Virus record (IMG/VR): IMGVR_UViG_3300014202_001519
Direction: 5' to 3' (one strand)
Length of the DNA: 64,000 bases
From: a virus
Shown: positions 16,595 to 32,905 of the stretch, piece by piece
Layout of the letters: every line of letters starts with the position of its first letter
How positions within the stretch are numbered: position 1 is the stretch's first letter
Translations under genes and position numbers: made by a program
Notes under the pieces: generated by a model
Seen by the model: the letters and a program-made list of their open reading frames with translations, nothing else
Databases searched by the model: none
What the model was told of the DNA's origin: nothing

Positions 16595-17082
16595 TAAAAA
16601 TAGAAATGAAGAAAGAACTCAGCGATTACCTGGATAAAGCAATCGCTGAGTTCTCTTTCAAACCAAAACAAAATGAATACACTCCAAAACTGGAAGAGAT
16701 TGATATTCCAGCCAGCGATCTACCCTGGAATCGTGAAGGTTTTTATTATACTATTTTTTTACAGTCAAATGAAACATTATTTGCCAGTCTAATGCCAAAC
16801 AAGCAGTTTCTAGCCCAAACTGGCAAATTTTATTATCCGCCTGGCGGATACATGGGCTGGCATACTAATTCAAATCACGAAGGCTATCGAATTTACGCAA
16901 CCCGTTGCAAAGAAAGTAATAAAAGTTTCTTCCGCTATGTTCTTGATGGCGAAGTTCATACGGATTGGGAGCAAGAAGGATGGAATTGCAGACTCTTTGA
17001 AGTAAGAAAAGACAAACTATACTGGCATTGCGTCTGGTCTGACACGGATCGTTATAGTTTTGGATTTAGATTTGCTTTCTAA
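16591..17082 (+). CDS. 2OG-Fe(II) oxygenase-like (cupin/DSBH) protein
   Basis: YPPGGYMGWHTN ... WHCV...DRYSFGF (H-x-N...H, distal R-x-S). Confidence 0.65.
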   Translation: MIKIEMKKELSDYLDKAIAEFSFKPKQNEYTPKLEEIDIPASDLPWNREGFYYTIFLQSNETLFASLMPNKQFLAQTGKFYYPPGGYMGWHTNSNHEGYRIYATRCKESNKSFFRYVLDGEVHTDWEQEGWNCRLFEVRKDKLYWHCVWSDTDRYSFGFRFAF

Positions 17083-17096
17083 GTTCTAAATACTGC

Positions 17097-18083
17097 ATGA
17101 TTAAGTTTCTCGAAGGATTCGACTCATACGGCCCCGTAAGCTTCCAATCTTCATATAAATGGAATAACGCTAACGTTGTGACACTCGGCGCTGGCCGTTT
17201 TAGTGGTTTTGCAGCCTATCTCGATACGACAACCCTTAAAAAGACAATTACCCCAGCATCTGGTATGACCGCTGGATTCTCATTGATCCTTCCAGGTGAC
17301 GGTGGAGATTTCATGATATGGGTAGATGACACCGATAGCTATATCATGAACGTAGGCACCAATGCCATCAACTCCCTTGTATATGTAACATCTAATACCA
17401 CCGCATACTCAACAACCGCCATCCCACTCAATACCTGGGTTTATTTTGAAATCTCTATTAACGATTTCACGTCAACCGCCGCTGGCAACATCATCATGCG
17501 TATGAACGGCGATGTAATATTTGAGTCCCCACTTGGTTTCACCCTACAAGGTACTGGTCTTGCCAGTGGTTTTAGCATATTAGGGGCTGGAATTAATACC
17601 ATTGGTTATGACGATTTGTATATTTGTGATAATTTAGGAACATATAACACCGCATTTATTGAGGATGGTGAGATATTGACTTTGTTCCCGAATGGTCCAG
17701 GCGATGTGACAGATTTCGGGTTAGTCGGAGCAGCAACAAATTGGGAAGCGGTAAGTGAACAGCCATTTGATGGTGATACGAGCTATGTTTTCAGTGGTGT
17801 AGCTGGAGAACAGGATTTATATACTGTTGACACCATAACCCTTGGCAATACGTTTGTTATTCCAGGTATCATGGTTAATGCGGTGGCTAGATATGATAAT
17901 ATTGATCCTGCGTATTGGGTGGCACTTATAAAAAGTGGGGTTAATTTGGGGGCTGCAACAGGAATAAGCGTGACAAACGCTTACCTGAACCATCAAAGCG
18001 TATTTGAAAGGGAACCAGTAACTAATAACCCTTGGACTGAGACTATGGTAAATGCTATGCAAATTGGTTCAGAAGTTGGTTAG
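17097..18083 (+). CDS. virion/tail-associated protein (EGF[DE] family paralog 2)
   Basis: F.EGFD start, WVYFEI, YDDLYICD, EP.T..PW...VNAMQIG end. Confidence 0.7.
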   Translation: MIKFLEGFDSYGPVSFQSSYKWNNANVVTLGAGRFSGFAAYLDTTTLKKTITPASGMTAGFSLILPGDGGDFMIWVDDTDSYIMNVGTNAINSLVYVTSNTTAYSTTAIPLNTWVYFEISINDFTSTAAGNIIMRMNGDVIFESPLGFTLQGTGLASGFSILGAGINTIGYDDLYICDNLGTYNTAFIEDGEILTLFPNGPGDVTDFGLVGAATNWEAVSEQPFDGDTSYVFSGVAGEQDLYTVDTITLGNTFVIPGIMVNAVARYDNIDPAYWVALIKSGVNLGAATGISVTNAYLNHQSVFEREPVTNNPWTETMVNAMQIGSEVG

Positions 18084-18111: not shown

Positions 18112-19110
18112 ATGGCACTAAGATGGATTGAAGGTTTCGAAACATTTAGCACTACTCTAACAGCCAATATAGATGCTTATTTGGCTTATAAGTATCCGTC
18201 TGCTGCGTCTTGTACCCTTGTTGCTGGTCGTACAGGTGGATTTGGGATTAGAAGCAGTAATATCATTGCTTGGCCGAACTTTGCCCCATTAAGCACATGG
18301 ATTATGGGGTGTGGATATAAAAAGGAATCAAATGGTCAAGAAGGTATTATGTTTTTCATGGATGGAGGTACAAATCAAATTGAAGTTCGTGCTGGCAATG
18401 GCGGCACGATAGATATTTACCGTAATGGAACTTATTTAGGCAGTGGCACAGCAACTCTGCTTCCTAATGTTTGGTATTATATAGAAACTAGAGTTTTTAT
18501 AGACTCAACTACTGGCAGTGTTGAAGTTAGATTAAACGGAGTAACTGATGTTAATTTGACGAACGTTAATACTCAAGCATCAGCCAACAATACAGTTAAT
18601 ACGTTCAAATTCCAGGTTTATTCCCAAGCAAGTTACTATGACGACATGTATATTTGCGATACGACTGGCTCCAACAACAACACTTTCTTAGGCGATAGTC
18701 GAGTAGAAGGCATTATGCCAACCGCCGATGGCACAACCATCCAGTGGACACCACTAGCAGGTGATAATTATGCTAACGTAAATGAAATCCCACCAGACGG
18801 CGACACTTCCTATGTCTCTACTAACACAACTAATGATGTTGATACCTATGCCTTTGCTAATTTGACAGCAATTACATCTGGCGTTAAAGGCTTGCAAGTA
18901 AACATTCTAAATCGCAAAGATGATGCAGGTTCAAGGGAAATTGCCCCAATGATAAGATCGGGTGGTACTGATTACACAGGGGATACATTCTCCGTGTTAG
19001 ATAATTATGCTACCGCAGTTCAGGTCTATGAAGAAGACCCCAATACCGCAGCTTTGTGGACAGTAGGTGGTGTCAATGCAGCAGAATTTGGTCAAAAAAT
19101 GATTAGCTAA
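18112..19110 (+). CDS. virion/tail-associated protein (EGF[DE] family paralog 3)
   Basis: W.EGFE start, WYYIE, YDDMYICD, DPNT...W....VNAAEFG end. Confidence 0.7.
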   Translation: MALRWIEGFETFSTTLTANIDAYLAYKYPSAASCTLVAGRTGGFGIRSSNIIAWPNFAPLSTWIMGCGYKKESNGQEGIMFFMDGGTNQIEVRAGNGGTIDIYRNGTYLGSGTATLLPNVWYYIETRVFIDSTTGSVEVRLNGVTDVNLTNVNTQASANNTVNTFKFQVYSQASYYDDMYICDTTGSNNNTFLGDSRVEGIMPTADGTTIQWTPLAGDNYANVNEIPPDGDTSYVSTNTTNDVDTYAFANLTAITSGVKGLQVNILNRKDDAGSREIAPMIRSGGTDYTGDTFSVLDNYATAVQVYEEDPNTAALWTVGGVNAAEFGQKMIS

Positions 19111-19127: not shown

Positions 19128-21596
19128 ATGAATAAGTATAAAGGATCAATATTGGCTAGTAGCTCTGTTATCTATGGAAGTTTTCTTCGCGGAACCCCAA
19201 TTACTAAAATTGATGGGCAGAAAGTCCGTATAGAAGACATTCAACGGGGCGACCTACTGTGCGGTATCGGTCCAAATGGAGAGTCTAATACCTCTCAAGT
19301 CATGATAATCGCTAAGGATTATTGCGATAATTACCTTAGAATTACTACTGAAGATACCGAATTGAATGTAGTCGGCAAACACCGACTCTATGTTGGACCA
19401 GATGTTCCATCTGATAATGAATGTCCACATTTCGTTAAAGCCGATACACTTAAAGTCAATGACAGTCTATACTTCCGTAAAGACAATGAAGTTAAGAAGA
19501 CTAAAATTGTTGACATAATCGAAGTTAATGAAAGAACAGAAGTATTCAATCTGAAATGCGAACGACCTGGCGTTGCGGCGACTCACGATGATGAAGACTG
19601 TTGGGCAACTTTCCATGCTGCGGGTATTGCAGCCCACGAAATGGGTGCTTGTGCCCCTATTGGTATTACCCATATTATTCCTAATTGTGGACCTCCAGGC
19701 ACACTTGTAACTATTATTGCAAGAAATGATAATACCGTTCACGCTTATGAAGGATTTGATGGATTCTTTGGTGACGGTGTTTGCGGCTGTGCCACAGGTT
19801 GTAATCCTGGCTATGTAACAGGAGTTACGTTTAGCGGTAATCCTGCCACTGTTCTTGGATCAAGTAGATTTATTTGTCACGCAATTGCTCCGCAAGGATC
19901 AGGTACTGCAACTATCAGTGCAACCACTGATTGGGGAGGATTTACAACAGCCTTCGCATCAGGAACTAACCAATTTACTTACAGTGATCTATGTGGTTAT
20001 GGTTGGGGTCCGAGTTATCCACATCAGAAACATAGCACAGGACCAACAAGCAAGACTGTCCCGCATAATAAGCCAATAAACCAGTGGACAACTACCAAGG
20101 GTGTTGGTATGCGACGTAAACAGTTCGCTGTTCCACCAGCGCCACCACCTCCACCACCACCACCATTTGGTGAAGGTGGCGACTTCCACCAGCGACATGA
20201 TACTGGACAGACAACGTTCGCACTCTCTCACGATACACCATTAAATGAGTGGACAACTACCAAAGGCATTGGTATGCGTCGTAAATGGATACTATCTAGT
20301 ACAGCTTTTGCAGCAGTTCAGACGCTTACTTCCCAAAATGCAGTAGAAGTTTTCGGTGTTGGCGATCCAAGCATAAGAACTACTCAGAATGGCGTCGAAG
20401 TTCTTGGTAATTCTAATCCAGATATTAGAACTACTCAAATTGCTATTGAAGTTATTGGTAATTCTAATCCAGATATTAGAACTACACAAATTGCTATTGA
20501 AGTTATTGGTAATTCTAATCCAGATATTAGAACTACTCAAATTGCTATTGAAGTTATTGGTCCTGTTGCAGAACCCCCACCTGGACCAATATTTGGTTAT
20601 CGTGGCAATATCCATCAGCGACATGATACAGGGCAAACCAATCATTCAATATCTCATGAATTACCATTAAATCAATGGACTTCGGGTAAAGGTATTGGAC
20701 TCAACAGACAAACAATGCGTGCGGCTGCGGAATTGCCACCCCCGCCACCCAATATATCATGTTATAATACTTCTACATTAGAATTTATTGCTGAGAATGC
20801 CGAATGGATTGTGCCGCCCAATGTCTATCAAGTCAAAATAGAATGTTGGGGTGCTGGTCAGTCTGGCGGTTTTTGCACCCCTGGCGGTCAGGGTGGAAGT
20901 TATGCAACCAGTATTGTGTCTGTTTTGCCTGGTCAACTATATTACATTACTTCCAGAAATAGACATGAGACAGATACTAGCCAAGTTCAAGACTCAAGTT
21001 TTAATACCATAGTAGCTGCTGGCTCTCTCTATCCAGCAGATAGTGTTGGCGATTATATCATAGATGGATTGCCTGGAACTCCAGAATATACTGTTTATAT
21101 CCCATTTGACCGCTATCTCACTAATGGTGGTAATGGTGGACATGCAGGCAATGGTGGCGCAGGTGGGGCGGGCGGTGCGCCTGGTGCAGTTATTAATGAA
21201 GGTAACGACGGTGAGCCTGGTGAGTTTCCTGGTGGTGGTGGTGGTAGTGCGGGTTTTACAACAGAATATGTAAGCCCATTTGCTCCTCCACTTATTTTCG
21301 GTGACGAACCATCCCCTACAGGTGGCGACGGTGCTGATGGTTTGGTTAGACTAACTTTCTGTACTCCTTTTGGTTATCTTGGCAATTACCATCGTCGGCA
21401 TGATACAGGACCAACTGCCAATTCAATACCACATAATGCTCCACTTAATCAGTATACAACTACGCAGGGTATTGGTTTAAGAAGAAGGGTAATGCTTGCG
21501 GCTAGTTTTGAACCAGAGCCACCTCCGTTCGTTTTGCCGACCATGATTAACATAAGAGCATGTAATTGCGCAGAATATTTGCCTCCAGAGTCTTAA
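19128..21596 (+). CDS. Hint-domain tail/fibre protein: N-terminal Hint, IPT/TIG-like domain, 4 His-triad repeats, glycine-rich domain
   Basis: SFLRGT.I...RIEDI..GD, VFNL...F.A.GI..H Hint blocks; P.CGP.GT.VTI IPT pattern; VPPNV..VKIECWGAG Gly-rich domain. Confidence 0.75.
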   Translation: MNKYKGSILASSSVIYGSFLRGTPITKIDGQKVRIEDIQRGDLLCGIGPNGESNTSQVMIIAKDYCDNYLRITTEDTELNVVGKHRLYVGPDVPSDNECPHFVKADTLKVNDSLYFRKDNEVKKTKIVDIIEVNERTEVFNLKCERPGVAATHDDEDCWATFHAAGIAAHEMGACAPIGITHIIPNCGPPGTLVTIIARNDNTVHAYEGFDGFFGDGVCGCATGCNPGYVTGVTFSGNPATVLGSSRFICHAIAPQGSGTATISATTDWGGFTTAFASGTNQFTYSDLCGYGWGPSYPHQKHSTGPTSKTVPHNKPINQWTTTKGVGMRRKQFAVPPAPPPPPPPPFGEGGDFHQRHDTGQTTFALSHDTPLNEWTTTKGIGMRRKWILSSTAFAAVQTLTSQNAVEVFGVGDPSIRTTQNGVEVLGNSNPDIRTTQIAIEVIGNSNPDIRTTQIAIEVIGNSNPDIRTTQIAIEVIGPVAEPPPGPIFGYRGNIHQRHDTGQTNHSISHELPLNQWTSGKGIGLNRQTMRAAAELPPPPPNISCYNTSTLEFIAENAEWIVPPNVYQVKIECWGAGQSGGFCTPGGQGGSYATSIVSVLPGQLYYITSRNRHETDTSQVQDSSFNTIVAAGSLYPADSVGDYIIDGLPGTPEYTVYIPFDRYLTNGGNGGHAGNGGAGGAGGAPGAVINEGNDGEPGEFPGGGGGSAGFTTEYVSPFAPPLIFGDEPSPTGGDGADGLVRLTFCTPFGYLGNYHRRHDTGPTANSIPHNAPLNQYTTTQGIGLRRRVMLAASFEPEPPPFVLPTMINIRACNCAEYLPPES
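20409..20561 (+). repeat. 51-bp tandem repeat x3 encoding NSNPDIRTTQIAIEVIG
   Basis: near-identical units starting at 20409, 20460 and 20511. Confidence 0.95.
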
Positions 21597-21615
21597 TATA
21601 TTAAAAGGGGTTTAT

Positions 21616-22050
21616 ATGGGTTATATTCAGCAGGATTTTACAAACGATCAGACCATTACCATCACGCTCGCTAGCTTAGCGAACGGAGCTACAGCAACGT
21701 CTGACACAATAGACAACAGCACAACCAAGTATTTGCACTGCGACTTGCAAACAAAGATGCGAACAGGCAGTGATGAAACGCCTCCTAGTGGCACAGTGGT
21801 TCTTTATATTTTAAGAAGTATTGATGGTGGCGTGACATTTGACGATCTTAATTCTAACACTGACATATTGGGAGTTTTCAATGTGGCTGGCAATGATGCT
21901 GATTTTCTTTTCAGTGTTGATACATCGACTATAGGCATCTTGCCTCAATATTGGAGACTTGCCGTGCTTAATAACACTGGCGTTGCGTTTAATGGCACTG
22001 GAAGTAACTTCTCTGTTAAGTTCGTTGGTAAGAAACTAGAAACTATATAA
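21616..22050 (+). CDS. small virion protein (TITLASLA family, paralog 1)
   Basis: QTITITLASLAN.ATA.S..IDNSTT motif shared by 5 ORFs. Confidence 0.7.
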   Translation: MGYIQQDFTNDQTITITLASLANGATATSDTIDNSTTKYLHCDLQTKMRTGSDETPPSGTVVLYILRSIDGGVTFDDLNSNTDILGVFNVAGNDADFLFSVDTSTIGILPQYWRLAVLNNTGVAFNGTGSNFSVKFVGKKLETI

Positions 22051-22060
22051 TTGGAGATAG

Positions 22061-23737
22061 ATGATCGACCATTCGCTTACTGGACAGGCACTTGGAGGAT
22101 TTAAAGGCATTCTAAGTCCTATTAATCCTGCTTGCCCGTTCAGTACCAATTTCATCAATAGTAAACAAACTTGGAATCTAACTAATGATCCACGGGCACA
22201 TCCCATCGCTGGTAGTTTTACAGATCATTTTACAGTAACTCTAGCCAATGGGCAAACTCATACTTGTAATAATTGGAGAGTTTGCACCCCATATTCAATG
22301 GGTGCTTTGGTTATTCCAGGCGGCGATGAGTCTCCTGGTTATTTCTTAGAAAACGTCGCTGATGATTTTTCACTATACATACAATTAGGATTTTACGCAG
22401 GCAATTTTTATTTTCAAGTCAGTGATGGCGGTGGAACGACTACTATTCGGACGGACGAGGAGGACGGATTTTCTGGTGCTTATTATGTATCTTGCTGCTA
22501 TAGCCCACCAGACCCACCCTCTGGCAACAAGAGTGCTTACATGAACATCTATGTCAATAGTTGGTCATTTGATACAATAATAATTCAAGACTCCCCTGTT
22601 GATTTGTTCTTATCAACACCAGAGTTTTCTGAACTTTCAATGGAATCTGGTTTCGATGTGGATTACTTAGCTGGCTTTTCGGACAGTTGCAATTGCGGCA
22701 CGGCACCATCGAATCTTATATGGGCGAAAGGCAGAAGTGGTACTTTTGGACAAAAAGATAAAGTAATTAGACAGCAAAACCTGTTAAGGAGAATGCTGGC
22801 GTATATTCCTTCTCTTGCAATTAATTATAGAACAACCAGAGCTTGCAATTGTCCAGCATTTGCTCCACCCCCCGCCCCACCAATGGATTTCATGGGTAAT
22901 GAAGGTGGTGATGAAGATGTAGAATTAACTTGGACACCAAATCCACAAGCTATTTGTTACAACATTTATCGTGGGGAAACATCTGGCGGCGAAACCTTGT
23001 TAGTTTCGTGTACTACAACTCCGTATTTTGACGAGGGCATAACGTGTGGGACCACTTATTATTACTACATAACAGCGGTTACTGGTGTTGGCGAAGGTCC
23101 ACCGTCACCAGAAATAGTAGTTATAACAGCAGCGATACCAGACCCACCAGCAGATTTTGCTGCCGATCAACTTGATGAACTTAACACTGAACTTACTTGG
23201 ACTGCCGAACCTGGAGTAGCTTATTACAAAATTTACCGAGGCGACACGCCTGGTAGTGAAACTATATTGGCCGATCCAGTTTTTGGGACTACTTTCACTG
23301 ATGGAGCTTTCACTTGCGGCAACACTTATTACTATTACATAACCTCTGTTGGTTGTGCAGAGAGTGATCCATCAGCAGAAATAACAGTGCCAACGTGCTG
23401 TATATTTACAGAATGTTGTGAATGTATGCCAGCTTCACTTGACTTGGAAGTAAATGAATTATATGGCTGTCCTGTTACTGGAAGTTTAAGTTGGGGTGGT
23501 ACTCACTATGGTAGCGGCGAAAGCAACTGTCAGGGATTCATTGCTATAAATGTATATTGTTTTGAAGGATCGTGGTTTGCAGACGTTCATCAAACTGGCG
23601 AAGGTGGACCTGGACCAACTAATACTTATCCAATGTCTGGTAGTTGCGAACCATTTAGTCTAACTACTGGATCGCAACCATTTGATGGTGGTGGTTATGG
23701 TGCGAGTACAATAGAAATTAATCTTACAGAACCTTAA
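22061..23737 (+). CDS. virion/tail protein with two FN3 domains and Cys-rich C-terminus
   Basis: LTW...Y.IYRG.T.G.E...D....G.TYYYYIT twice. Confidence 0.7.
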   Translation: MIDHSLTGQALGGFKGILSPINPACPFSTNFINSKQTWNLTNDPRAHPIAGSFTDHFTVTLANGQTHTCNNWRVCTPYSMGALVIPGGDESPGYFLENVADDFSLYIQLGFYAGNFYFQVSDGGGTTTIRTDEEDGFSGAYYVSCCYSPPDPPSGNKSAYMNIYVNSWSFDTIIIQDSPVDLFLSTPEFSELSMESGFDVDYLAGFSDSCNCGTAPSNLIWAKGRSGTFGQKDKVIRQQNLLRRMLAYIPSLAINYRTTRACNCPAFAPPPAPPMDFMGNEGGDEDVELTWTPNPQAICYNIYRGETSGGETLLVSCTTTPYFDEGITCGTTYYYYITAVTGVGEGPPSPEIVVITAAIPDPPADFAADQLDELNTELTWTAEPGVAYYKIYRGDTPGSETILADPVFGTTFTDGAFTCGNTYYYYITSVGCAESDPSAEITVPTCCIFTECCECMPASLDLEVNELYGCPVTGSLSWGGTHYGSGESNCQGFIAINVYCFEGSWFADVHQTGEGGPGPTNTYPMSGSCEPFSLTTGSQPFDGGGYGASTIEINLTEP

Positions 23738-23795
23738 AATAATCTTCGGTAGAATTATATATAAGGCAAGCCAATAAAATTTAATAAGGAGAATT

Positions 23796-24224
23796 ATGGC
23801 AACGATCCAGCAGAATTTAACAAGTAATCAGACGATTACTATTACACTAGCTAGCTTGGCAGACGCAACCGCCGCTGTTTCTAGCACAATCAACAACTCC
23901 AGCACTTTGTATATTGGTGCGGACGTTCAGATTCAATGGCGAACGGGCGCAGCGGTTTCAGGTAGCGGTACGGTAGACATTTACATGCTCCGTTGCTTGG
24001 ACGGCGCTGGCACTGATTTCGATGATGCAGAGCCAACCACGGCTACTTTGATTGATAACTTCCCAGCAATCAACTCAGCTACCGATCAGATCGTTAGCAT
24101 GAGCATCGAAGTATTGCCTTCCCGTTGGAGACTTATGGTTGTCAACAACACTGGTGACGCATTTGATTCAACACCAGCTAACTTCAGCGTAATCTTTGAA
24201 GGTAAGAAGCTATCGACTGTATAA
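23796..24224 (+). CDS. small virion protein (TITLASLA family, paralog 2)
   Basis: same family motif. Confidence 0.7.
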   Translation: MATIQQNLTSNQTITITLASLADATAAVSSTINNSSTLYIGADVQIQWRTGAAVSGSGTVDIYMLRCLDGAGTDFDDAEPTTATLIDNFPAINSATDQIVSMSIEVLPSRWRLMVVNNTGDAFDSTPANFSVIFEGKKLSTV

Positions 24225-24252
24225 GCTTTATATTACAATTAATACATTTGTA

Positions 24253-24279
24253 ATTATGGAGGCGCGGAGCCTCCATAAT
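24253..24279. terminator. intergenic hairpin
   Basis: attatggaggc-gcgga-gcctccataat. Confidence 0.55.
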
Positions 24280-24307
24280 TGCCTAAAATATATAAGGCTT
24301 ATCACTT

Positions 24308-27300
24308 ATGGTACTACCTCCATGTACACAACCATCACCGAGTTATCCTGTTGGCACTGTAGGTGTTCCTTACAGCTATACTCCTCCGCATTCAGGTGAT
24401 TGTGGCGTTGATTATTTTGGGTCATGGTCGCCAAATATCCCACCTGGCTTAACGCCAGCTACTGACGGAAGTGGTACACTATCTGGAACCCCTACCGCAT
24501 CTGGAACCTTTACATGTAATATTCGTTGTGCCGCTGGCTATTTCGGCTACCCTTGCACTGGCCAAAGCACAACTCCTACTCTCACCCCAATTACAATTAA
24601 GATTTTCGCAGCCCCTTGTGCTGGTAAATCATTATACGCTTGGTATACTGGCTCTGGTCCCGATGCCGATACCAGTGGAAATTTTACAGTACCTCCTGGC
24701 ATTAATAAGATTTTTGTCGAGGCAGTTGGTGCTGGTAACATAGAAGGCGGCAACAGTAGTGGTGGCGGTGGCGGCGGTTATGCTAACGCTTGGATGGATG
24801 TTGTCCCAGGAGAAAATTTTTCTTGGGAAATTGCGGATATATCAACCACTTTTGGCGACCCAAATACAAATCTTGGCATATATGCAAGAGCGGGCGATGG
24901 TTCTCTTGGCGGCACTGATAATAGAGGACAAGTTACTAACCCTGGTCAAGATGGTGAAGCATGGGGCGGCTGGCCACCTGGAGATGGTGGTAACGGTGGA
25001 GCTAGCGGTTCTGGAGGTCTTGGCGGGCTTGGTAGCCTTAGTATGTCATTTGATGGTGGTCCAGGCTATGATTTCGGCGGTGGCGGTGGCGGCGGCTGGA
25101 ATAATGGTGAAGTAGGCAGTAATGGCGGCGTTGGTGGACGTGGCTTAGTTGCTATTTATGTCTGTAATACTTTTGGATATAATAACAATTCCCACCGATT
25201 TCATGATACAGGCCAAACAAATAACCCTATACCTCACGATCAGCCACTTAATCAATGGACTACGACAACAAGCATTGGTTTAAAAAGGCAATCCATACTA
25301 TCAACGGCACTTGCGGCTACGATACCAACGCCACCTTTGTCAATTTATGGATGTTATACATCGACTTTGGTTTATGGAACGGCTCTTGAGGACTTCTCAA
25401 CCAACGTAGAAAACACCACGTTCTTGTTGAACGATATTACAAACCCGAATACTATCCAACCGCACGATTTACTGTTGGTTACTCTTTGCCATATTGGTAA
25501 TTATGTACCTACTCTATCCATTACAACAAATACTGGCTACTGGAAGGGTACATTCAAACAAGCAGCGGCTGGCGGTGCGAACGATCATGACGTTTATATT
25601 GAAACTTGGTATTTAGATAATGCTTATGGCATCATTGGTTTAAATGATTATTTGACATTGACTTTCGACTCTGGCTCTGGACCTGGACAGACTCAATTCA
25701 TTTACCGTATTGTTCGTGGAACAGGTCAGATTGCTTGGTTCCAAGACATAGGCTCTGGTAGTTTCGGCCAAGGTCCAAGTGAACTCATAGCCGATACCGC
25801 TAACTCTAACACAAACATTGTTCCTAGAGAGTTCTATTACGCTGCTCTCAACGTATTCCATTGCAATACTTTAATGTATCCGTGGGGCGGTGGATTCCTC
25901 AATGGTGTTGAGCAATTGACGCCCACATTCTCGCAGAATACCAGCCTTAATGACGGATTTAGAGTAGTTGTAAATCCACAGGTTTATAACGCTACTAAGC
26001 CTATTGATGAGAATGACTTCGGCCCTGAATGGGGTACGACATTATCCAGCTATTATTGTAATCCATATCCTAGTTGTAGATTTAATGCAGGTTATTCATT
26101 CGTGGCTACAACCACTGGCGGCTTTGCCATCCCTAGAGGTATCTACTCCATATTTGTAGAATGCTGGGGCAGCGGTGCAGATGGTAATGTAGACGGCACT
26201 GGTGGTGGCGGTGGTGGTTTTGCCGCAGGTTTTGTTTATGTTACGCCTGGACAAGTTGTTTCATATACTATCGACGGAAGCGGATCGTATGTAGGCAGCA
26301 TTTCTGCCGCAGCGGGCAACGGTATCCTTGGCGGCACCATCAATGTAGGTGAGTATGTTGTAAGTGGTGGTAATGGTTCACCCCCAATTCCCCGTGAAGA
26401 TATTTGTGTTGGATGTTATGACGGTGGTGACGGTGGCGCAGGTGTAATTGGTGCAGGCGGTGCAGGTGGAGCAGCTTCAACAGGTAATGGCGGCGCAGGT
26501 AATGCCATCGGTGGCGGCGGTGGTGGCGCTGGTGGTAATACAGGAGAATCAGGTACAGGCGGCGCAGGTAGCCCTGGACTTATAAGGATCAGTCTCTGCG
26601 CAATTAGATTTGGTTGGCGTGGAGGCGGTGGTGGTGGCCCTGGTGGGGGTAGCATCGGCGGTAGTCCACATCGAAGTCATAATACTGGTCCAACTAACGA
26701 TCCAATTCCTCATAATGTTCCAATTAACCAGTATACATCAGGTATTGGCATTGGTCTAAGAAGAAAGTCCATACTAGCTGGAGCAATGTTGACTCCTCCT
26801 CCACCTCCACCTAATTTTGGACCATTTTGTAATAGTGCTTTCCAACAGCTAATTATTTATGATCCACTTGTAACTGATATCAGTGACTCAATTACTGTTC
26901 CGCCTGGCATGAGACGCATGATTGCCAAGGTTTGGGCAAGAGGCGGTAAAGGTGAAGATGGTGGAGGTGGCAATGGTGGTTGGGGTGCTGGTGGTGGTGG
27001 TTATGCTGGCAGTGTATTTCGTGTCGTCCCTGGCGAAATAATTGGTTACAGTATCAATGGGGGTTCGTCCAATGTCATTGGTTTATATGGTAGTGCTGAT
27101 GCTAACGCAGGTGCGGGTGAAGGCGGTACTGCTGGTGGAACTGCTTTTGGTGATGTGGCCATTACTGGACAAGACGGTAATGTAGCTGGCGAAGGCGCTG
27201 GCGGTGACGGTGGAGATGGTGCTACGGGCGGTGCTGGTGGTGAAGGCGGTTTCACTGATAACATCCCTGGTCGAGACGGTGGTTATTACGGCGGCGGCGG

Positions 27301-30300
27301 CGGCGGCGGTTTCAGCGGTGGCATCAGTGGTGATATGGTAGGTGGTTTACCTGGACCTGGCTTAATTGTTATGCAATTTTGCCCTGGCTTCGGCTTCCGT
27401 CGCAATACTCACCGAGTTCATAACACTGGCCCTACAAGTGGTCCTATACCACATAATGTACCACTTAATCAGTGGAGTACAACTACTGGTATTGGTTTTA
27501 GAAGAAAACCATTGCTAGCAGCATTGTCGTCTTCGACAACGCCTCCTCCTCCACCTCCACAGCCAAGTTGTTATCGAACTGGAACCTTAACTGTTTATGG
27601 TGTTGAAGGCGATACGGTCCTACAAAACTTCACTGTGCCTGATGGCGTTTATTCTATATTTGCTGAATGCCTTGGACATGGCGGTACTGGTGAAAATACT
27701 GCTGGTGGTGACACGTTATATGTAGGTCAAGGCGGTGGTGCAGGTGCTTACGCAGCTAGCACAATTGCCGTTACTCCAGGTGACTCATTTACCATTACTG
27801 TAAACAATGGTGGTAGTGCAGATATTGTTGGTTCTCCTGGCACCGTATCGGCAGAAGCTGCTACTGGTATTACTGGCGGAACCGCTGGTGGGTCAACTGG
27901 CGATATTACTATATCTGGCCAAGATGGATACCTTGGAGAATCACTATTTACTGATCCAGCAAATGGTAATGGTGGACAAGGTGGAAACAGCCAGTTTGGA
28001 GTTGGTGGCCTTGGTGGATTAGGATACGCTATAACTGGCCCCGCTACTGGTGGTAATGGTCAGCCAGGTACTTTCTATGGCTCAGGTGGTGGTGCGGGCG
28101 GCTATGGTGGTAGCTCAGGTGGCAACGGCGATATTGGTGCGCCTGGTTTAGCTAGAGTTACTTGGTGTTGGGGATACGCTTATGGCCCTCCAACCCCTCC
28201 ACACCAGCAACATGATACTGGACCGACTAATGATCCTATAACACATGATACCCCAATTAATGATTATACCACTACCAAGGGTATTGGTATGCGTAGGAAA
28301 TGGGTTCTCAGTGCCGCATTAAGTGCCTCTTATGATCCAATACCAGTGCCATTGCCACCAATATGCGGTGTAACCAATGAAATACTATCATTTAATGGAA
28401 CTTTACGCAATATAACATCGCTGTCATATGACGGCGATGGAACTTTCACCGTGCCAGATGGTATTACCCAAATATACGTCGAGTGTATTGGTGGCGGTGG
28501 TGGTGGTGGTAATGGTAATTCTGCCGAAGATGAAGACGGTGGTGGTGGTGGTGGTGGTGCTGCATATGCTGCATCTTTACTCAGTGTTGTCCCTGGCACT
28601 ATCATTTCATTTAACGTGGGCGTAGGCGGTGTAACTGAAGGTTTCGATGGCGGGACTACCTCATTCGATAGCCCACCAACGGTTTCTGCTGATTATGGTC
28701 GTTATGGCACAGGAGCTATTGGCGGTCAAGGTGGATTAGCGGTCAATTGCATTGGTGATGTAGCGATTAGCGGTGCTGATGGCTTTACAGGCATTTCCGC
28801 TTCGTTCCCTCCTGTCGGTGGTGCTAGTGGTGGTGCAGCAGGGGGCGGCGGTCAAGGCGGCAGTGGTGGTAATTTCAATACAGGTGGTTTGCCAGGTGAG
28901 TATCCAGGCGGTGGTGGTGGTGGTAGCGGCAGTCAAGGCGGTGCTAGTGCTGCTGGCGCTGATGGTTTAGTCAGAATTACTTATGTAAGTTACAATTATG
29001 GACTTACTGAAAATCCTAATCGTTATCCAACCGTAAGACACCAGACTCATACTACTGGACAAACTAATTGGTCTATTCCACATTGTCAGCCGTTGAATCA
29101 GTTTACAACTACTAAGGGCGTTAGCGTAAGAAATAAACCTCTTGCATCGGCATTAGCGGGTCCATATCCACCTAATCCTTATCCATTGCCATCACCACAA
29201 CCATGTGCTGTTCCTGACCTTGACCTTGCATTTAATCTTCGTCAAAGGTTCAACAGCACAACATTCTATTCTAATGAGAATTTGGAGAGTTTTGATTGGG
29301 TTGCACCTTATGGTGTGACTGAGATTATATTACAGGTGCAAGGTTCTGGCACAGGTGGTGCCCAAGGTGGTGATGACGCTGGTGGCTGCGGTGGCGCTGG
29401 TGGTCTTTGCACCTATTATATAGCTACAGTTGTTCCAGGGCAAAGTTATCCTATTGTTATTGATCCACTCACTGGTGATATGGACTTTAATAATGGGGAT
29501 ATAGTAATTACAGGAAATATTGCCCCAACAGGTGGTCCAACTTGCAGTTTATTCTTCGGTGATCCAGGTGGTCCTCCTGAATGCACCGCTGGTGGTTATG
29601 GTTATGGTGGCGCTGGTGGTCCCGATTATGGCGAGCCAGGCGAAAACGGCTTCGGCGGTGGCGGCGGCGGCGGCGGTGGTCCAGGTGCGCCAGGTGGTTA
29701 TGGTAGCGTTGGTTGGATGCGTATTTTCTACGTCAATCAATATGGTTATTATGGTGCTGGTAATGGTAATGGGATTAGTAATCATTACCCAAGCAGAAGA
29801 CACCAGACTCACCAAACTGGACAGACTAATTTCAGTATTTCGCACTGCGTACCATTAAATCAGCAGACAACGACTAAGGGTATTAGTGTTAGAAATAAGG
29901 TTTTCTTTGCTATAGACCCTCCAAACCCATCCCCTCCAGTCCCACCATCCCCTCCATTCTGTGGAAGGATGACGACATTTACGCTCGATGGTCCTGGCAG
30001 TACAAACTTTGAAGTGCCTGCTGGTGTTACTTTAATTTATGTCGAATGTATCGGCGGTGGTGCTAACGGTGCCAACGCTACTAACTTGAGCGGTGAAGGT
30101 GGTGGCGGTGGTGGTTATGGTGCTAGTTTAATAGCTGTTAATCCTGGTGATACTTATACTATTGTTGCTGGCAATATAGCACAAGACAGTAACTTTGGCG
30201 GTACTACTGTTCAAGGCATTGGTGCCACGGGTCAATCAGGCGGTACAGGCAACGTTGGTAATTTCACTCAGGATGGTCAAGACGGAGCTAATGGTGGAAT

Positions 30301-32905
30301 ATCATTAGGCTCAGGCGGTAATGGTGGTGGCAGCGGTAGCGGTGCATCAGGCGGTGCGGGCGGGGCACCTTCTGCTAATGGCTCTCCAGGTAGTAATTTC
30401 GGTGGTGGCGGCGGCGGTGCTGGTGGTACAAATACTAGCGCTACTGGTGGTGCGGGTGCTGTTGGTCAGGTTCGTATTACATGGCAGAGTGATTACGGCT
30501 ATCTTGGCGATTTCCACCAGCGACATGATACTGGACAGACTAACTACGCTTTACTACATTGCACTCCAATTAATGATTGGACGACAACCAAGGGTATTGG
30601 TATGCGTCGCAAGTATATTCTTGCGGCAGCTGCCCTTGAGCCACCTTTCGAGCCATGTGTTAGAAACTTTGGCGAAAGTGGAGACTTCCATCAGACTCAT
30701 TCAACTGGTCAAACCAATACTGCAATCAGTCATTATTGTGGACTAAATGATTGGACGACAACCAAGGGTATTGGTATGCGTAGGAAGTGGTTCGCAGCAT
30801 TTGAACCACCACCACCACCAGAACCGCCAGTACCATTTACAGCCCCATTGTATACGAAGTATACCTATTATGCGGCAGCTTTGATTGCTGGAGAATCTGT
30901 TCCGTCAGTACCTCCATCTCCTCCATTCTGTGGAAGACAGGTTCAGGCTACTTTCACCGAAACAACAAGTTGGGCAGTACCTGCTGGTGTAACTGAAATA
31001 TATGTTGAATGTGTCTCTGGTGGTGGAGGCGGTGGTGATGGTAATTCGAGTGGTGAAGATGGTGGAGGAGGCGGTGGTGCTTCTGCTTATGCGGCATCGC
31101 TATTAAATGTAACTCCAGCTACCAATTATACGCTTCAAATTGGCGTCGGCGGCAGTGGTGACGGTGCTAACGGTACGGCAACAGACTTTAATAGCGGTCA
31201 AGTTCTAGCAGATTTTGGAGTGGGTGCTACTGGTAGTGTTGGTGGTACGGGTGGACTTGCGACAAACAGCGTTGGTGATGTAACATTTGATGGTATTGAT
31301 GGGTCTAATGGCACTACAGGTTCGGTTCCACCAGTTGGTGGTGCTGTGGGTGGTTCTGCTCCAGGTGGTGGTATTGGTGGGGCAGGCGGCGCACCAAATA
31401 CGGCTGGCTCTCCAGGTGGTTATCCAGGTGCTGGCGCTGGTGGTGGTGGCAGTACATTTGGCGTAGGTGGTGGTGCGGCTGGTGCAGATGGTTTAATTAA
31501 GATTACATGGCCAAGCACTTATGGCTTGCGTGGTGATATTCACCAGACTCATTCCACTGGTCAAACCAATTATTCCATAATGCATTGCACGCCTCTTAAC
31601 CAATACACCACTACCAAGGGTATTGGTATGCGTAGGAAGTATATTCTTGATGTAAACCCTTCAGATTTAAGGGTTACGCAGGAATATGCGGAAGTGTTCA
31701 ACGTTGATCCACCAACGCCAAATATTAGAGTTACTCAATTCTACTTTGAGGTTATGGATCAACCGCCTGGACCGCAGAAGTTTACGGCGGTAAGATTTAG
31801 AAGTTATACGATCATTGCGGCTGGTTTAGCTGAGCCTAATCCACCAGTGCCGCCAGAGCCGTTTACGGCACCATTGTATCTGCGATGGGTCATAAGAGCG
31901 GCTGGCTTGGCTGCTGATTTGCCTACACCAACGCCACAACCATTTAGTTGCAAGGCTTGCATCGGCAGGTACAAGTTTAGAGTTCAGTCAACATGTATTC
32001 CTAATGTTTCATGTGATACAACGGTTACTTTGCTTGAGAGGGGATATGCCACTTGTAATTGCAATAATCGCACGCCAGTTGACAACATAGATAATCCTCT
32101 GTTCTTACCAGAAGCTTTAGAGCCGATTTATCCGCCACCGCCCCCTGAACCACCAACGGCACCAGTACCGCCGCCAGAAGACCCACCAGTTCCACCAGTG
32201 GTTCCTCCAGCGCCACCTGTGCCGCCACCAATGATTCAGCCGCCAGCATGTGGGAATATGCCGCCAGTGTTACCTATCACTAACCTTGGCATTTTCCACG
32301 TTGTAAATAATAGCAGCATATCTAATGCCGAGTTGGATGCACAAATTGCGCTAGTTCAGAGACAGGTTGACCAAGACTTCGCCCCGTATTGGGGTTTAAC
32401 TTGTACTTTACAGAGAGATTCTGGTGTGCTTGTTGGATTTAACGTCTACGTCTATGAGGGTCCGAGTGACGTTGCGGGCGCATGTGGATACCATACTGGC
32501 TTAAGAAATGGTTATGTATTCAAGAACCCAGGACAAGGTTGCGGAAGTTGGCAGGTTACGTTTAGCCATGAAGTATTAGAAATGCTTGGCAATCCAAGAC
32601 CTGCAAAGTGGCCACTTGGCAACTGGTCCAGCGAAGTGACATTTATAACTAAGACAGGCAGATTTATTCAAGAAGTCTGCGACCCTGTTGCATATCCAAC
32701 ATATGCCAATGACACGTTATCTAACTTTGTGTATCCATCGTGGTTCGTTCCAGGCAGCCCTTGCCCGTGGGATTATCTACAAATATTGAATGGTCCATTA
32801 ACATTTACCCCTTGGGGTTTGCTGATGTTCCGAGAAAGTGGATTTATTCCGACTTTCTGGAGCGCCCACATGTGCGATGGCGTACCATGCTTAGGACCAC
32901 CTTAA
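24308..32905 (+). CDS. giant (2865 aa) modular tail fibre/adhesin: Ig-like domain, 8 glycine-rich domains, 9 His-triad repeats, Pro-rich linkers, C-terminal HExxE metallopeptidase-like domain
   Basis: repeated F.VP.G...I.VEC.GGG...G.VRI.W domains; H..H.TG.T...H..P.N..TT.KGIG.RRK repeats; SHEVLEM/EVCDPV. Confidence 0.8.
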   Translation: MVLPPCTQPSPSYPVGTVGVPYSYTPPHSGDCGVDYFGSWSPNIPPGLTPATDGSGTLSGTPTASGTFTCNIRCAAGYFGYPCTGQSTTPTLTPITIKIFAAPCAGKSLYAWYTGSGPDADTSGNFTVPPGINKIFVEAVGAGNIEGGNSSGGGGGGYANAWMDVVPGENFSWEIADISTTFGDPNTNLGIYARAGDGSLGGTDNRGQVTNPGQDGEAWGGWPPGDGGNGGASGSGGLGGLGSLSMSFDGGPGYDFGGGGGGGWNNGEVGSNGGVGGRGLVAIYVCNTFGYNNNSHRFHDTGQTNNPIPHDQPLNQWTTTTSIGLKRQSILSTALAATIPTPPLSIYGCYTSTLVYGTALEDFSTNVENTTFLLNDITNPNTIQPHDLLLVTLCHIGNYVPTLSITTNTGYWKGTFKQAAAGGANDHDVYIETWYLDNAYGIIGLNDYLTLTFDSGSGPGQTQFIYRIVRGTGQIAWFQDIGSGSFGQGPSELIADTANSNTNIVPREFYYAALNVFHCNTLMYPWGGGFLNGVEQLTPTFSQNTSLNDGFRVVVNPQVYNATKPIDENDFGPEWGTTLSSYYCNPYPSCRFNAGYSFVATTTGGFAIPRGIYSIFVECWGSGADGNVDGTGGGGGGFAAGFVYVTPGQVVSYTIDGSGSYVGSISAAAGNGILGGTINVGEYVVSGGNGSPPIPREDICVGCYDGGDGGAGVIGAGGAGGAASTGNGGAGNAIGGGGGGAGGNTGESGTGGAGSPGLIRISLCAIRFGWRGGGGGGPGGGSIGGSPHRSHNTGPTNDPIPHNVPINQYTSGIGIGLRRKSILAGAMLTPPPPPPNFGPFCNSAFQQLIIYDPLVTDISDSITVPPGMRRMIAKVWARGGKGEDGGGGNGGWGAGGGGYAGSVFRVVPGEIIGYSINGGSSNVIGLYGSADANAGAGEGGTAGGTAFGDVAITGQDGNVAGEGAGGDGGDGATGGAGGEGGFTDNIPGRDGGYYGGGGGGGFSGGISGDMVGGLPGPGLIVMQFCPGFGFRRNTHRVHNTGPTSGPIPHNVPLNQWSTTTGIGFRRKPLLAALSSSTTPPPPPPQPSCYRTGTLTVYGVEGDTVLQNFTVPDGVYSIFAECLGHGGTGENTAGGDTLYVGQGGGAGAYAASTIAVTPGDSFTITVNNGGSADIVGSPGTVSAEAATGITGGTAGGSTGDITISGQDGYLGESLFTDPANGNGGQGGNSQFGVGGLGGLGYAITGPATGGNGQPGTFYGSGGGAGGYGGSSGGNGDIGAPGLARVTWCWGYAYGPPTPPHQQHDTGPTNDPITHDTPINDYTTTKGIGMRRKWVLSAALSASYDPIPVPLPPICGVTNEILSFNGTLRNITSLSYDGDGTFTVPDGITQIYVECIGGGGGGGNGNSAEDEDGGGGGGGAAYAASLLSVVPGTIISFNVGVGGVTEGFDGGTTSFDSPPTVSADYGRYGTGAIGGQGGLAVNCIGDVAISGADGFTGISASFPPVGGASGGAAGGGGQGGSGGNFNTGGLPGEYPGGGGGGSGSQGGASAAGADGLVRITYVSYNYGLTENPNRYPTVRHQTHTTGQTNWSIPHCQPLNQFTTTKGVSVRNKPLASALAGPYPPNPYPLPSPQPCAVPDLDLAFNLRQRFNSTTFYSNENLESFDWVAPYGVTEIILQVQGSGTGGAQGGDDAGGCGGAGGLCTYYIATVVPGQSYPIVIDPLTGDMDFNNGDIVITGNIAPTGGPTCSLFFGDPGGPPECTAGGYGYGGAGGPDYGEPGENGFGGGGGGGGGPGAPGGYGSVGWMRIFYVNQYGYYGAGNGNGISNHYPSRRHQTHQTGQTNFSISHCVPLNQQTTTKGISVRNKVFFAIDPPNPSPPVPPSPPFCGRMTTFTLDGPGSTNFEVPAGVTLIYVECIGGGANGANATNLSGEGGGGGGYGASLIAVNPGDTYTIVAGNIAQDSNFGGTTVQGIGATGQSGGTGNVGNFTQDGQDGANGGISLGSGGNGGGSGSGASGGAGGAPSANGSPGSNFGGGGGGAGGTNTSATGGAGAVGQVRITWQSDYGYLGDFHQRHDTGQTNYALLHCTPINDWTTTKGIGMRRKYILAAAALEPPFEPCVRNFGESGDFHQTHSTGQTNTAISHYCGLNDWTTTKGIGMRRKWFAAFEPPPPPEPPVPFTAPLYTKYTYYAAALIAGESVPSVPPSPPFCGRQVQATFTETTSWAVPAGVTEIYVECVSGGGGGGDGNSSGEDGGGGGGASAYAASLLNVTPATNYTLQIGVGGSGDGANGTATDFNSGQVLADFGVGATGSVGGTGGLATNSVGDVTFDGIDGSNGTTGSVPPVGGAVGGSAPGGGIGGAGGAPNTAGSPGGYPGAGAGGGGSTFGVGGGAAGADGLIKITWPSTYGLRGDIHQTHSTGQTNYSIMHCTPLNQYTTTKGIGMRRKYILDVNPSDLRVTQEYAEVFNVDPPTPNIRVTQFYFEVMDQPPGPQKFTAVRFRSYTIIAAGLAEPNPPVPPEPFTAPLYLRWVIRAAGLAADLPTPTPQPFSCKACIGRYKFRVQSTCIPNVSCDTTVTLLERGYATCNCNNRTPVDNIDNPLFLPEALEPIYPPPPPEPPTAPVPPPEDPPVPPVVPPAPPVPPPMIQPPACGNMPPVLPITNLGIFHVVNNSSISNAELDAQIALVQRQVDQDFAPYWGLTCTLQRDSGVLVGFNVYVYEGPSDVAGACGYHTGLRNGYVFKNPGQGCGSWQVTFSHEVLEMLGNPRPAKWPLGNWSSEVTFITKTGRFIQEVCDPVAYPTYANDTLSNFVYPSWFVPGSPCPWDYLQILNGPLTFTPWGLLMFRESGFIPTFWSAHMCDGVPCLGPP

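Follow-up and report, generated by a model that had tools for sequence, protein, structure and literature searches.

The subject of this analysis is a 64,000-nucleotide stretch of viral DNA (IMG/VR record IMGVR_UViG_3300014202_001519), referred to throughout as the window, in which two proteins, P0001 and P0002, carry 13 copies of a short histidine motif at the borders between their domains. Judged from sequence, the motif is a real, previously undescribed and very rare family under strong constraint. Our preferred, though tentative, interpretation is that it may be a clasp-and-connector mini-domain, which closes each head unit and serves as the uniform joint in an intact multi-headed adhesin. 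This draws on what is observed directly, namely the conservation of the motif, the coupling of cysteine residues, the length of the linkers, the points at which genes are split and the identity of the cargo.

Occurrence and conservation of the motif

A six-frame regular-expression scan of the window for the pattern H..H.TG.T gave 13 matches, where 0.025 would be expected from composition. All are in frame and they lie only in P0001 (four) and P0002 (nine), which confirms the copies and positions given by the initial annotation, with every codon of the first histidine (His1) no more than 4 nt from the coordinate listed there. In the alignment of the 13 window copies, 45 columns long, H9, H12, T14, G15, T17, H23 and N28 are invariant. 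The annotation had described the three histidines and the TGxT as invariant, which holds within the window but not in homologues; amongst ~80 distinct copies His1 is never replaced, but His2 is substituted by isoleucine or arginine in five, His3 by asparagine in two and the glycine of the TG by threonine or glutamine in a few. The second half of the motif, P-[LI]-N-x-[WY]-T-T-T-K-G-I-G-M-R-R-K, is conserved at least as strongly as the histidine half, and His3 is followed in nearly all copies by a residue of the ligand type (cysteine, aspartate, asparagine or glutamate).

Purifying selection acts more strongly on the motif than on the heads. Between the last unit in the window and its orthologue in the IMG/VR locus L001, the motif differs by nine synonymous and no non-synonymous changes in 45 codons and the head by 76 synonymous and 49 non-synonymous changes in 200 codons. 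Amongst the 13 window copies the mean synonymous difference is 0.70, which is near saturation, as against 0.28 for the non-synonymous difference. Since the invariant residues are encoded by several different codons, selection acts at the level of the protein. These data also bear on an alternative in which the repeat is an element of the DNA, either a homology patch for the recombination that shuffles heads or a set of internal translation starts (AAGGGT, 7 nt and the ATG of the methionine before RRK). Exact runs of 21-36 nt around ACCAAGGGTATTGGTATGCGT that are common to some copies would suit such a role, as would the wide variation in module number among relatives (two to nine motifs per protein) and a level of synonymous change against L001 that is lower in the motif (9/45 codons) than at conserved head residues (76/151). 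However, the copies are 60-79% identical in DNA, with the exact runs confined to the T-K-G-I-G-M-R region, and taken with the near-saturated synonymous differences and the different codons of the invariant residues this makes a DNA-level element highly improbable. An internal start at the motif methionine was rejected; 46 of 81 distinct copies (~57%) have the residue, and in six of the 13 in the window no start codon is possible at that place.

The ACCAAGGGTATTGGTATGCGT stretch itself, which reads as a Shine-Dalgarno-like AAGGG, 7 nt and ATG, hardly varies at synonymous positions across six copies. The M-R-R-K and the hydrophobic stretch that follows were also considered as a Sec, Tat or lipoprotein signal peptide, which was rejected given that the element is internal and that only those 46 copies have the methionine. 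The hydrophobic run after RRK is 7-11 residues long and is followed by proline, and the residues before the cysteine are unlike a lipobox.

Search for relatives

The initial annotation did not recognise the motif as a named family, and profile and library searches of Pfam, PHROG, NCBIfam and the PDB lead to the same conclusion. None of the 13 single copies matches Pfam at E values up to 1, the whole proteins matching only Hint, below the cut-off, and PF21722. No PHROG or NCBIfam match covers the motif, the PHROG hits of the whole proteins falling in the heads, and the 13-copy profile matches no PDB chain at E up to 10. A match of the tandem-motif segment to CBM53 (22.1 bits, cut-off 27.6) was discarded since no single copy reproduces it. 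No match was found in GenBank phages, either in a near-identity DNA search with positions 19128-32905 or by tblastn with P0001, one motif copy and P0004, a small protein encoded nearby. A pattern scan of GTDB genomes gave no relative, the ESM Atlas gave no usable match for the tandem-motif segment and the metagenome contigs searched yielded two short loci only.

When 1.84 billion representative proteins were searched with a profile, 28 matches were obtained, of which ~20 are real relatives, on contigs of up to ~620 kb. From a 5.8-billion-cluster collection 22 proteins were matched, unnamed save for one partial protein from a metagenome bin labelled as Nitrospira. DUF285/BspA-like proteins among the weak profile hits (P0034 and P0035) resemble the P-L-N-x-W-T-T-x-K-G half of the motif, but over a single repeat unit only, which was taken as chance.

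The cargo heads

P0002 contains eight glycine-rich domains and P0001 one, as had been counted initially, with a glycine content of 27-34% per head, except for the P0001 head (19%). P0002 matches the Pfam family PF21722 (Gly_rich_2) with an E value of 4.2e-20 (73.2 bits, gathering cut-off 24.3), and PHROG tail-fibre families match it through the same head regions. In an AlphaFold model of a single unit the predicted local distance difference test score (pLDDT) of the head is 70-87. The best Foldseek match of the modelled head is to the Pam3 fibre (7ypx_A, E 3e-4, probability 1.00), followed by the Bxb1 tail tip, with a TM-score to 7ypx_A that is low (0.31-0.42), the head model being only of moderate quality. 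A profile of 20 units also matches the Pam3 fibre chains 7yfw and 7ypx, at E 3e-5 and up to a few residues from the chain ends, so that the motif starts where Pam3 gp24 stops. In Pam3 the TNF-like/glycine-rich domain is the receptor-binding, host-recognising part (PMC9608196). By these matches the nine cargo heads are TNF-like/glycine-rich domains of the Pam3 type and of the receptor-binding kind, in keeping with the adhesin-type cargo that had been proposed.

Architecture of the unit and the pairing of cysteines

The order of the parts is regular, as first described: a head, an FG[YLF] linker, the motif, a hydrophobic/alanine stretch, a proline-rich stretch, a cysteine and then the next head. 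The picture of a modular, multi-headed, fibre-like protein with the motif at the module borders likewise stands. The subtype of the motif tracks the type of the head that precedes it and not that of the head that follows. Between RRK and the next entry cysteine, where a hydrophobic 8-mer leads into a Pro-rich stretch, there are 13-23 residues in 29 of 30 linkers, a constraint that speaks for a fixed spacing and against a floppy tether.

In at least four independent protein groups (P0006/15/39/41, P0042, P0012 and P0026) the N-terminus lies 3-10 residues upstream of His1, and in the IMG/VR locus L002 the upstream gene ends exactly at the point just before His1. This gives the element a well-defined N-terminal boundary, which is a preferred site of gene fusion or fission. 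The C-terminal core of all relatives consists of a motif, a helical F-T-A-P-L-Y element, a Pro-rich linker, a head, a second motif, V-T-Q repeats, F-T-A..A-A-G-L-A helices and a Cys-rich hairpin, to which some proteins add poly-Pro and an H-E-V-L-E domain. The N-terminal side varies and may hold nothing, one unrelated domain, a propeller or, in the window, seven more heads. This polarity, with a conserved C-terminus and a variable N-terminus, reverses that of classical tail fibres.

Cysteine can be found at three positions of the unit border: at the entry, directly downstream of the Pro-rich linker; within the final strand of the head, 10-12 residues ahead of His1; and one or two residues after His3. 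The informative test is one of these border positions only, the parity of all cysteines per unit being uninformative (32 of 75 units even) because most heads carry a further cysteine in the VEC strand. Amongst 37 distinct units of head plus motif, all 33 heads with an entry cysteine have exactly one partner, which lies in the motif in 26 and in the last strand in seven. Neither partner is present in two of the three N-terminal heads that lack an entry cysteine. Headless copies that follow poly-Pro only have no cysteine (10/10), with mostly Asp or Glu after His3, and the headless copies of C-x-R-x-F-G-E type have both the upstream and the motif cysteine (6/6). Where split genes end right after the head (P0007, P0025 and P0042) a short cap, [FY]-G-L-K-x-P-..-C, supplies the cysteine. 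Altogether 51 of 52 units have either none or exactly two. The interchangeable partners of the entry cysteine are ~27 residues apart in the sequence and, on the simplest interpretation, the motif would fold back against the base of the preceding head, with the His3 region next to the first and last strands. The pairing may represent a disulfide or shared metal ligation, the data fitting either.

This coupling over ~27 residues also argues for a defined fold rather than a foldless, flexible linker with a recognition signal for a modifying enzyme (glycosylation or hydroxylation). Although low AlphaFold confidence, Thr-rich stretches, Pro-rich neighbours and an N-x-S in many copies could all be read as signs of such a linker, the N-x-S is not conserved and the open reading frame (ORF) at 16591-17082, considered as a 2OG-Fe(II) oxygenase (prolyl hydroxylase), matches no 2OG oxygenase family in Pfam, NCBIfam or PDB sequence searches. 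We regard a linker of this kind as barely plausible.

A proposed model for the motif as clasp and connector

In the clasp-and-connector model the element would comprise ~45 residues, namely FG-x-x-G-[DN]-h, His1 to RRK and then h-I-L-x-A-A-x-L, where h is hydrophobic. A unit would consist of a Pro-rich rod, the entry cysteine, a TNF-like/glycine-rich receptor-binding head, the motif and the hydrophobic 8-mer, leading into the next unit's Pro-rich rod. Beyond the head's last strand the motif is envisaged to fold back such that the residue by His3 meets the entry cysteine and the last strand, as suggested by the covariation, with the pair of cysteines, as a disulfide or as shared metal ligands, closing the unit at the base of the head. 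It is plausible that the three histidines, together with the Cys, Asp, Glu or Asn after His3, form a metal site, which would probably stabilise the small fold. The joint would then string diverse heads and other cargo at near-constant spacing on a single polypeptide that stays intact and, because it is constant, could be the site at which genes are fused, split and shuffled. That the clasp lies within the same chain is favoured by the cysteine pairing and by the motif subtype travelling with the preceding head.

Several points weigh against this model. AlphaFold2 gave no confident structure for any copy of the motif, the pLDDT being 45-52 in a motif-head-motif-motif segment and 25-30 in the conserved core, which leaves covariation as the sole basis for the fold-back. 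As single chains with shallow alignments (20 and 12 sequences) were modelled, the low values are not evidence for disorder. The Fisher p value for the cysteine coupling in the head-plus-motif units (1e-6 for the 2 × 2 table [[0,8],[27,2]]) overstates independence, since the units are related and the pattern partly tracks the TGPT and TGQT subclasses, so that there are well below 37 independent events. Disulfides are not expected in the host cytoplasm. The existence of headless and N-terminal copies means that clasping a head cannot be the only role of the motif, and a few copies have other residues in place of His2 or His3. Finally, the H-x2-H of the motif differs from the H-x-H spacing of the known metal sites in T4-type fibres (PMC11705849).

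The motif might instead be an inter-chain docking or oligomerisation node, binding other copies of itself (for example in a three-chain metal node), the baseplate or a scaffold, or an assembly factor. It would then resemble a dockerin-type tag that attaches modules to the virion, and this would be compatible with a clasp, to which it may be an added function. Headless copies exist, several proteins carry the motif at the extreme N-terminus, where fibres usually dock, and in L002 the end of one gene coincides with the start of the motif in its downstream neighbour, as though the two products came together again. The lack of a monomer fold in AlphaFold is as expected of an element that folds only in a complex. 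The motif is also conserved far more than the heads, and 17-aa repeats in the same proteins look like fibre-shaft repeats. On the other hand no partner has emerged, the 142-aa neighbours are found also in motif-free contigs, and a single modelled chain with three copies of the motif showed no association among them. Cysteines are coupled inside a unit and not between units and, with both ends of a Pam3-type head presumably at its base, linkers of 13-23 residues would make an in-line three-fold fibre awkward. We consider this docking role, the main rival of the clasp, somewhat unlikely. A new metal-dependent (His3 + Cys/Asp) mini-domain that both clasps the heads and mediates inter-chain assembly seems to us unlikely.

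A different role would be as a processing site, with a polyprotein cleaved at each motif or beside it, by itself through an H-x-T acyl shift or by a protease at RRK, to free single-headed fibres. The H-[DNSTQ]-T of the motif resembles cis-autoproteolytic sites, such as the HL/T of GPS and the HDT of glycosylasparaginase, the basic RRK is conserved and genes are split at the motif border. In P0036, a distant homologue from outside the window, a diverged motif with an Ala stretch lies directly before G-D-P-H-F. A cleavage site, however, would not need 33-45 conserved residues, and the natural splits precede His1 rather than falling at the H-x/T bond or after RRK. His2 of the H-x-T, which is present in all 13 window copies, is the residue replaced by isoleucine or arginine in five homologous copies. 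There is no match to an enclosing autoproteolytic fold or family, the ~45-residue element can stand alone between poly-Pro stretches and the last motif of each protein precedes a conserved tail and not another product. The initial annotation had pointed to three potential processing modules in the same late genes (Hint, an HExxE peptidase and GDPH), and none of the results connects them to the motif. The Hint match of P0001 (residues 17-135, 20.5-22.5 bits) is below the Pfam cut-off of 29.7 and far from all motif copies, the HExxE (HEVLE) domain matches no family, neither is linked to the motif, and the GDPH is in another gene ~20 kb away. Processing at the motif is therefore judged improbable.

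Comparison with known systems

Cyanophage Pam3 gp24 (PDB 7YPX/7YFW; PF21722) has the same type of head as the nine in the window. The Pam3 protein, with its N-terminal helical docking domain, has a single head and ends right after it, without a counterpart of the His motif, whereas in the window there are up to eight heads per chain. Large phages with multi-receptor systems, amongst them CBA120 with tailspikes TSP1-4, G7C with gp63.1/gp66 and Klebsiella K64-1, rely on conserved attachment modules. As in the window, several different receptor-binding modules are present on one virion, but there they are separate proteins with T4 gp10-like/XD docking domains, whereas the heads of the window are mostly fused through an unrelated motif. 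The dockerins of cellulosomes are likewise short conserved modules, possibly metal-dependent, that are carried on Pro/Thr-rich linkers and joined to diverse cargo. This likeness is in logic only; there is no sequence relation, no cohesin-like partner is known and the window copies are internal and serial.

Work by Tetart and colleagues in 1998 reportedly found that the His boxes of T4 gp37-type proteins flank segments exchanged by recombination. Like the motif, these boxes, the H-x-H iron sites of the T4 gp37 long-tail-fibre tip and related fibres, are recurrent, conserved, short His motifs in a fibre protein; those of T4 hold metal on the three-fold axis (PMC11705849). The window motif differs in its H-x2-H-x10-H spacing and in being a unit of 33-45 residues at domain borders rather than part of a continuous needle, and library and PDB searches gave no sequence or profile similarity between it and gp37-type proteins.

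Eight different Pam3-type heads on a protein of 2865 residues suggest that adsorption uses many receptors or that the host range is broad. A connector that is self-contained and stabilised by metal or disulfide would, if the model is correct, explain how heads are gained, lost and swapped, and could be reused for stringing binding domains together. Should the motif both clasp heads and assemble chains, it would give very large phages a polyvalent array of adhesins that differ in specificity, with up to eight heads on one chain and more through docked chains, which would amount to a new architectural principle of phage host recognition and a portable connector for multi-specific fibres. With ~20 clusters among the 1.84 billion representative proteins the family is tiny, and its general importance is limited unless the principle is wider.

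Organisation of P0001 and P0002

Positions of the two motif genes, their motif copies and heads, and of the related features are given in the table.

Table 1. Coordinates of the motif genes, their parts and neighbouring features in the window, and in other IMG/VR loci where named.
Feature	Position	Strand	Description
P0001	19128..21596	+	822 aa, 4 motif copies
P0002	24308..32905	+	2865 aa, 9 motif copies
Motif copy 1	20022..20120	+	His1 to RRK, after Cys-rich beta domain of P0001
Motif copy 2	20187..20285	+	headless, after poly-Pro, no Cys before or inside
Motif copy 3	20613..20711	+	headless, after 17-aa repeats, no Cys before or inside
Motif copy 4	21390..21488	+	after P0001 head (Cys in last strand); Asn after His3
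Motif copy 5	25193..25291	+	after P0002 head 1
Motif copy 6	26669..26767	+	after head 2
Motif copy 7	27410..27508	+	after head 3
Motif copy 8	28202..28300	+	after head 4
Motif copy 9	29039..29137	+	after head 5; Cys directly after His3
Motif copy 10	29801..29899	+	after head 6; Cys directly after His3
Motif copy 11	30515..30613	+	after head 7; Cys directly after His3
Motif copy 12	30689..30787	+	headless tandem; Cys 11 residues upstream of His1 and at His3+2
Motif copy 13	31541..31639	+	after head 8; 45 residues identical to L001 orthologue
P0001 head	20760..21365	+	glycine-rich (TNF-like), entry Cys to last strand
P0002 head 1	24617..25168	+	
P0002 head 2	26075..26644	+	
P0002 head 3	26828..27385	+	
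P0002 head 4	27569..28177	+	
P0002 head 5	28364..29014	+	best PF21722 stretch (residues 1377-1559)
P0002 head 6	29204..29776	+	
P0002 head 7	29960..30490	+	AlphaFold pLDDT 70-87, best structural match Pam3 fibre
P0002 head 8	30929..31516	+	in conserved core common to all relatives
ACCAAGGGTATTGGTATGCGT stretch	20095-20115, 28275-28295, 30588-30608, 30762-30782, 31614-31634		
P0003	21616..22050	+	144-aa small protein, paralogue of P0004
P0004	23796..24224	+	142-aa small protein, 84% identical to L001 counterpart
142-145-aa family elsewhere	L001 5106-5534; L002 6115-6543; L004 390-815; L007 10001-10438		
phrog_2448 paralogues	14192-16594 (N-terminal part), 17097-18083, 18112-19110; L001 227-3211		

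P0001 begins with a Hint-like N-terminus and a Cys-rich beta domain, followed by motif 1, poly-Pro, motif 2, four 17-aa repeats, motif 3, poly-Pro, the single glycine-rich head, motif 4 and a short tail ending IRACNC. The Hint-like N-terminus (19179-19640) is also found in the relatives P0013 and P0030. P0002 is made up of the eight glycine-rich heads, one ~250-aa domain without assignment and the nine motif copies, together with short VTQ and FTA..AAGLA repeats, a Cys-rich hairpin domain, a long poly-Pro and the C-terminal HEVLE domain.

The 17-aa repeats of P0001 (20328-20531, 51-nt period; I-R-T-T-Q-I-A-I-E-V-I-G-N-S-N-P-D) match phrog_13560. A related pair, V-T-Q-x-Y-x-E-V, follows the last motif in P0002 (~31650-31760) and is found in all P0002 relatives; both may be fibre-shaft repeats. 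Elements of the form F-T-A-x-x-Y-x-x-x-h-h-x-A-A-[GA]-L-A are repeated at ~30800-30870 and 31790-31960 and are predicted by AlphaFold to be helices, and their A-A-x-L end resembles the hydrophobic stretch downstream of each motif. The small Cys-rich domain (C-x2-C ... C-x-C, ~31960-32100) is kept at or near the C-terminus in all P0002-type relatives and was modelled as a long beta-hairpin with a pLDDT of ~60. In P0001-type proteins the C-terminus is instead a short I-R-x-C-N-C tail. The HEVLE domain (32295-32905), for which there is no Pfam or NCBIfam family match, is kept in P0014, P0040 and P0043 as D-H-E-V-L-E-M-L-G-D-P.

Phage setting and neighbouring genes

The exact P0001 sequence is recorded on a 623-kb contig, and P0009, to which P0002 is most closely related, on a 597-kb contig, so that the genome of the phage is ~600 kb. 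The window encodes homologues of rIIA and rIIB and further phage genes; no tRNA genes were found in it. The gene order is conserved in L001 (373-kb contig) and L002 (159.5-kb contig), the phrog_2448 protein being 68% and the small protein 84% identical to the counterparts there. Paralogues of phrog_2448, a structural family of unnamed function, occur three or four in tandem and always upstream of the motif genes. Their best GenBank match is from a 595-kb uncultured phage (LR756511, 42% identity), and homologues are also present in many Salmonella, Proteus, Caulobacter and Brevundimonas phages.

The 142-145-aa family of small proteins, all-beta-looking, is duplicated in the window, with one copy upstream of P0005 and one upstream of P0002, and has no match in Pfam, PHROG, NCBIfam or the PDB. 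Its members were considered as possible partners of the motif. Distant homologues (29-41% identity) lie in the virion structural modules of smaller viral contigs, that in L007 being among head/virion structural genes just after the portal and major head protein. Because homologues lie in five viral contigs that lack the motif within 10 kb, the 142-aa proteins were rejected as motif-specific partners.

P0005, encoded between the two motif genes (22061-23737), is a Cys-rich protein of 558 aa with two fibronectin type III domains and zero copies of the motif. Further downstream, in the GDPH protein of the window (51638-53551, 637 aa), a Gly/Ser linker precedes the GDPH, where the motif has left a faint trace at most, and the N-terminal part would by eye seem to be of a possible propeller type. 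The adjoining protein of 736 aa (49419-51629) has a strong match to Vgb_lyase/NHL beta-propellers (E 1e-81) and may be a fibre-like component.

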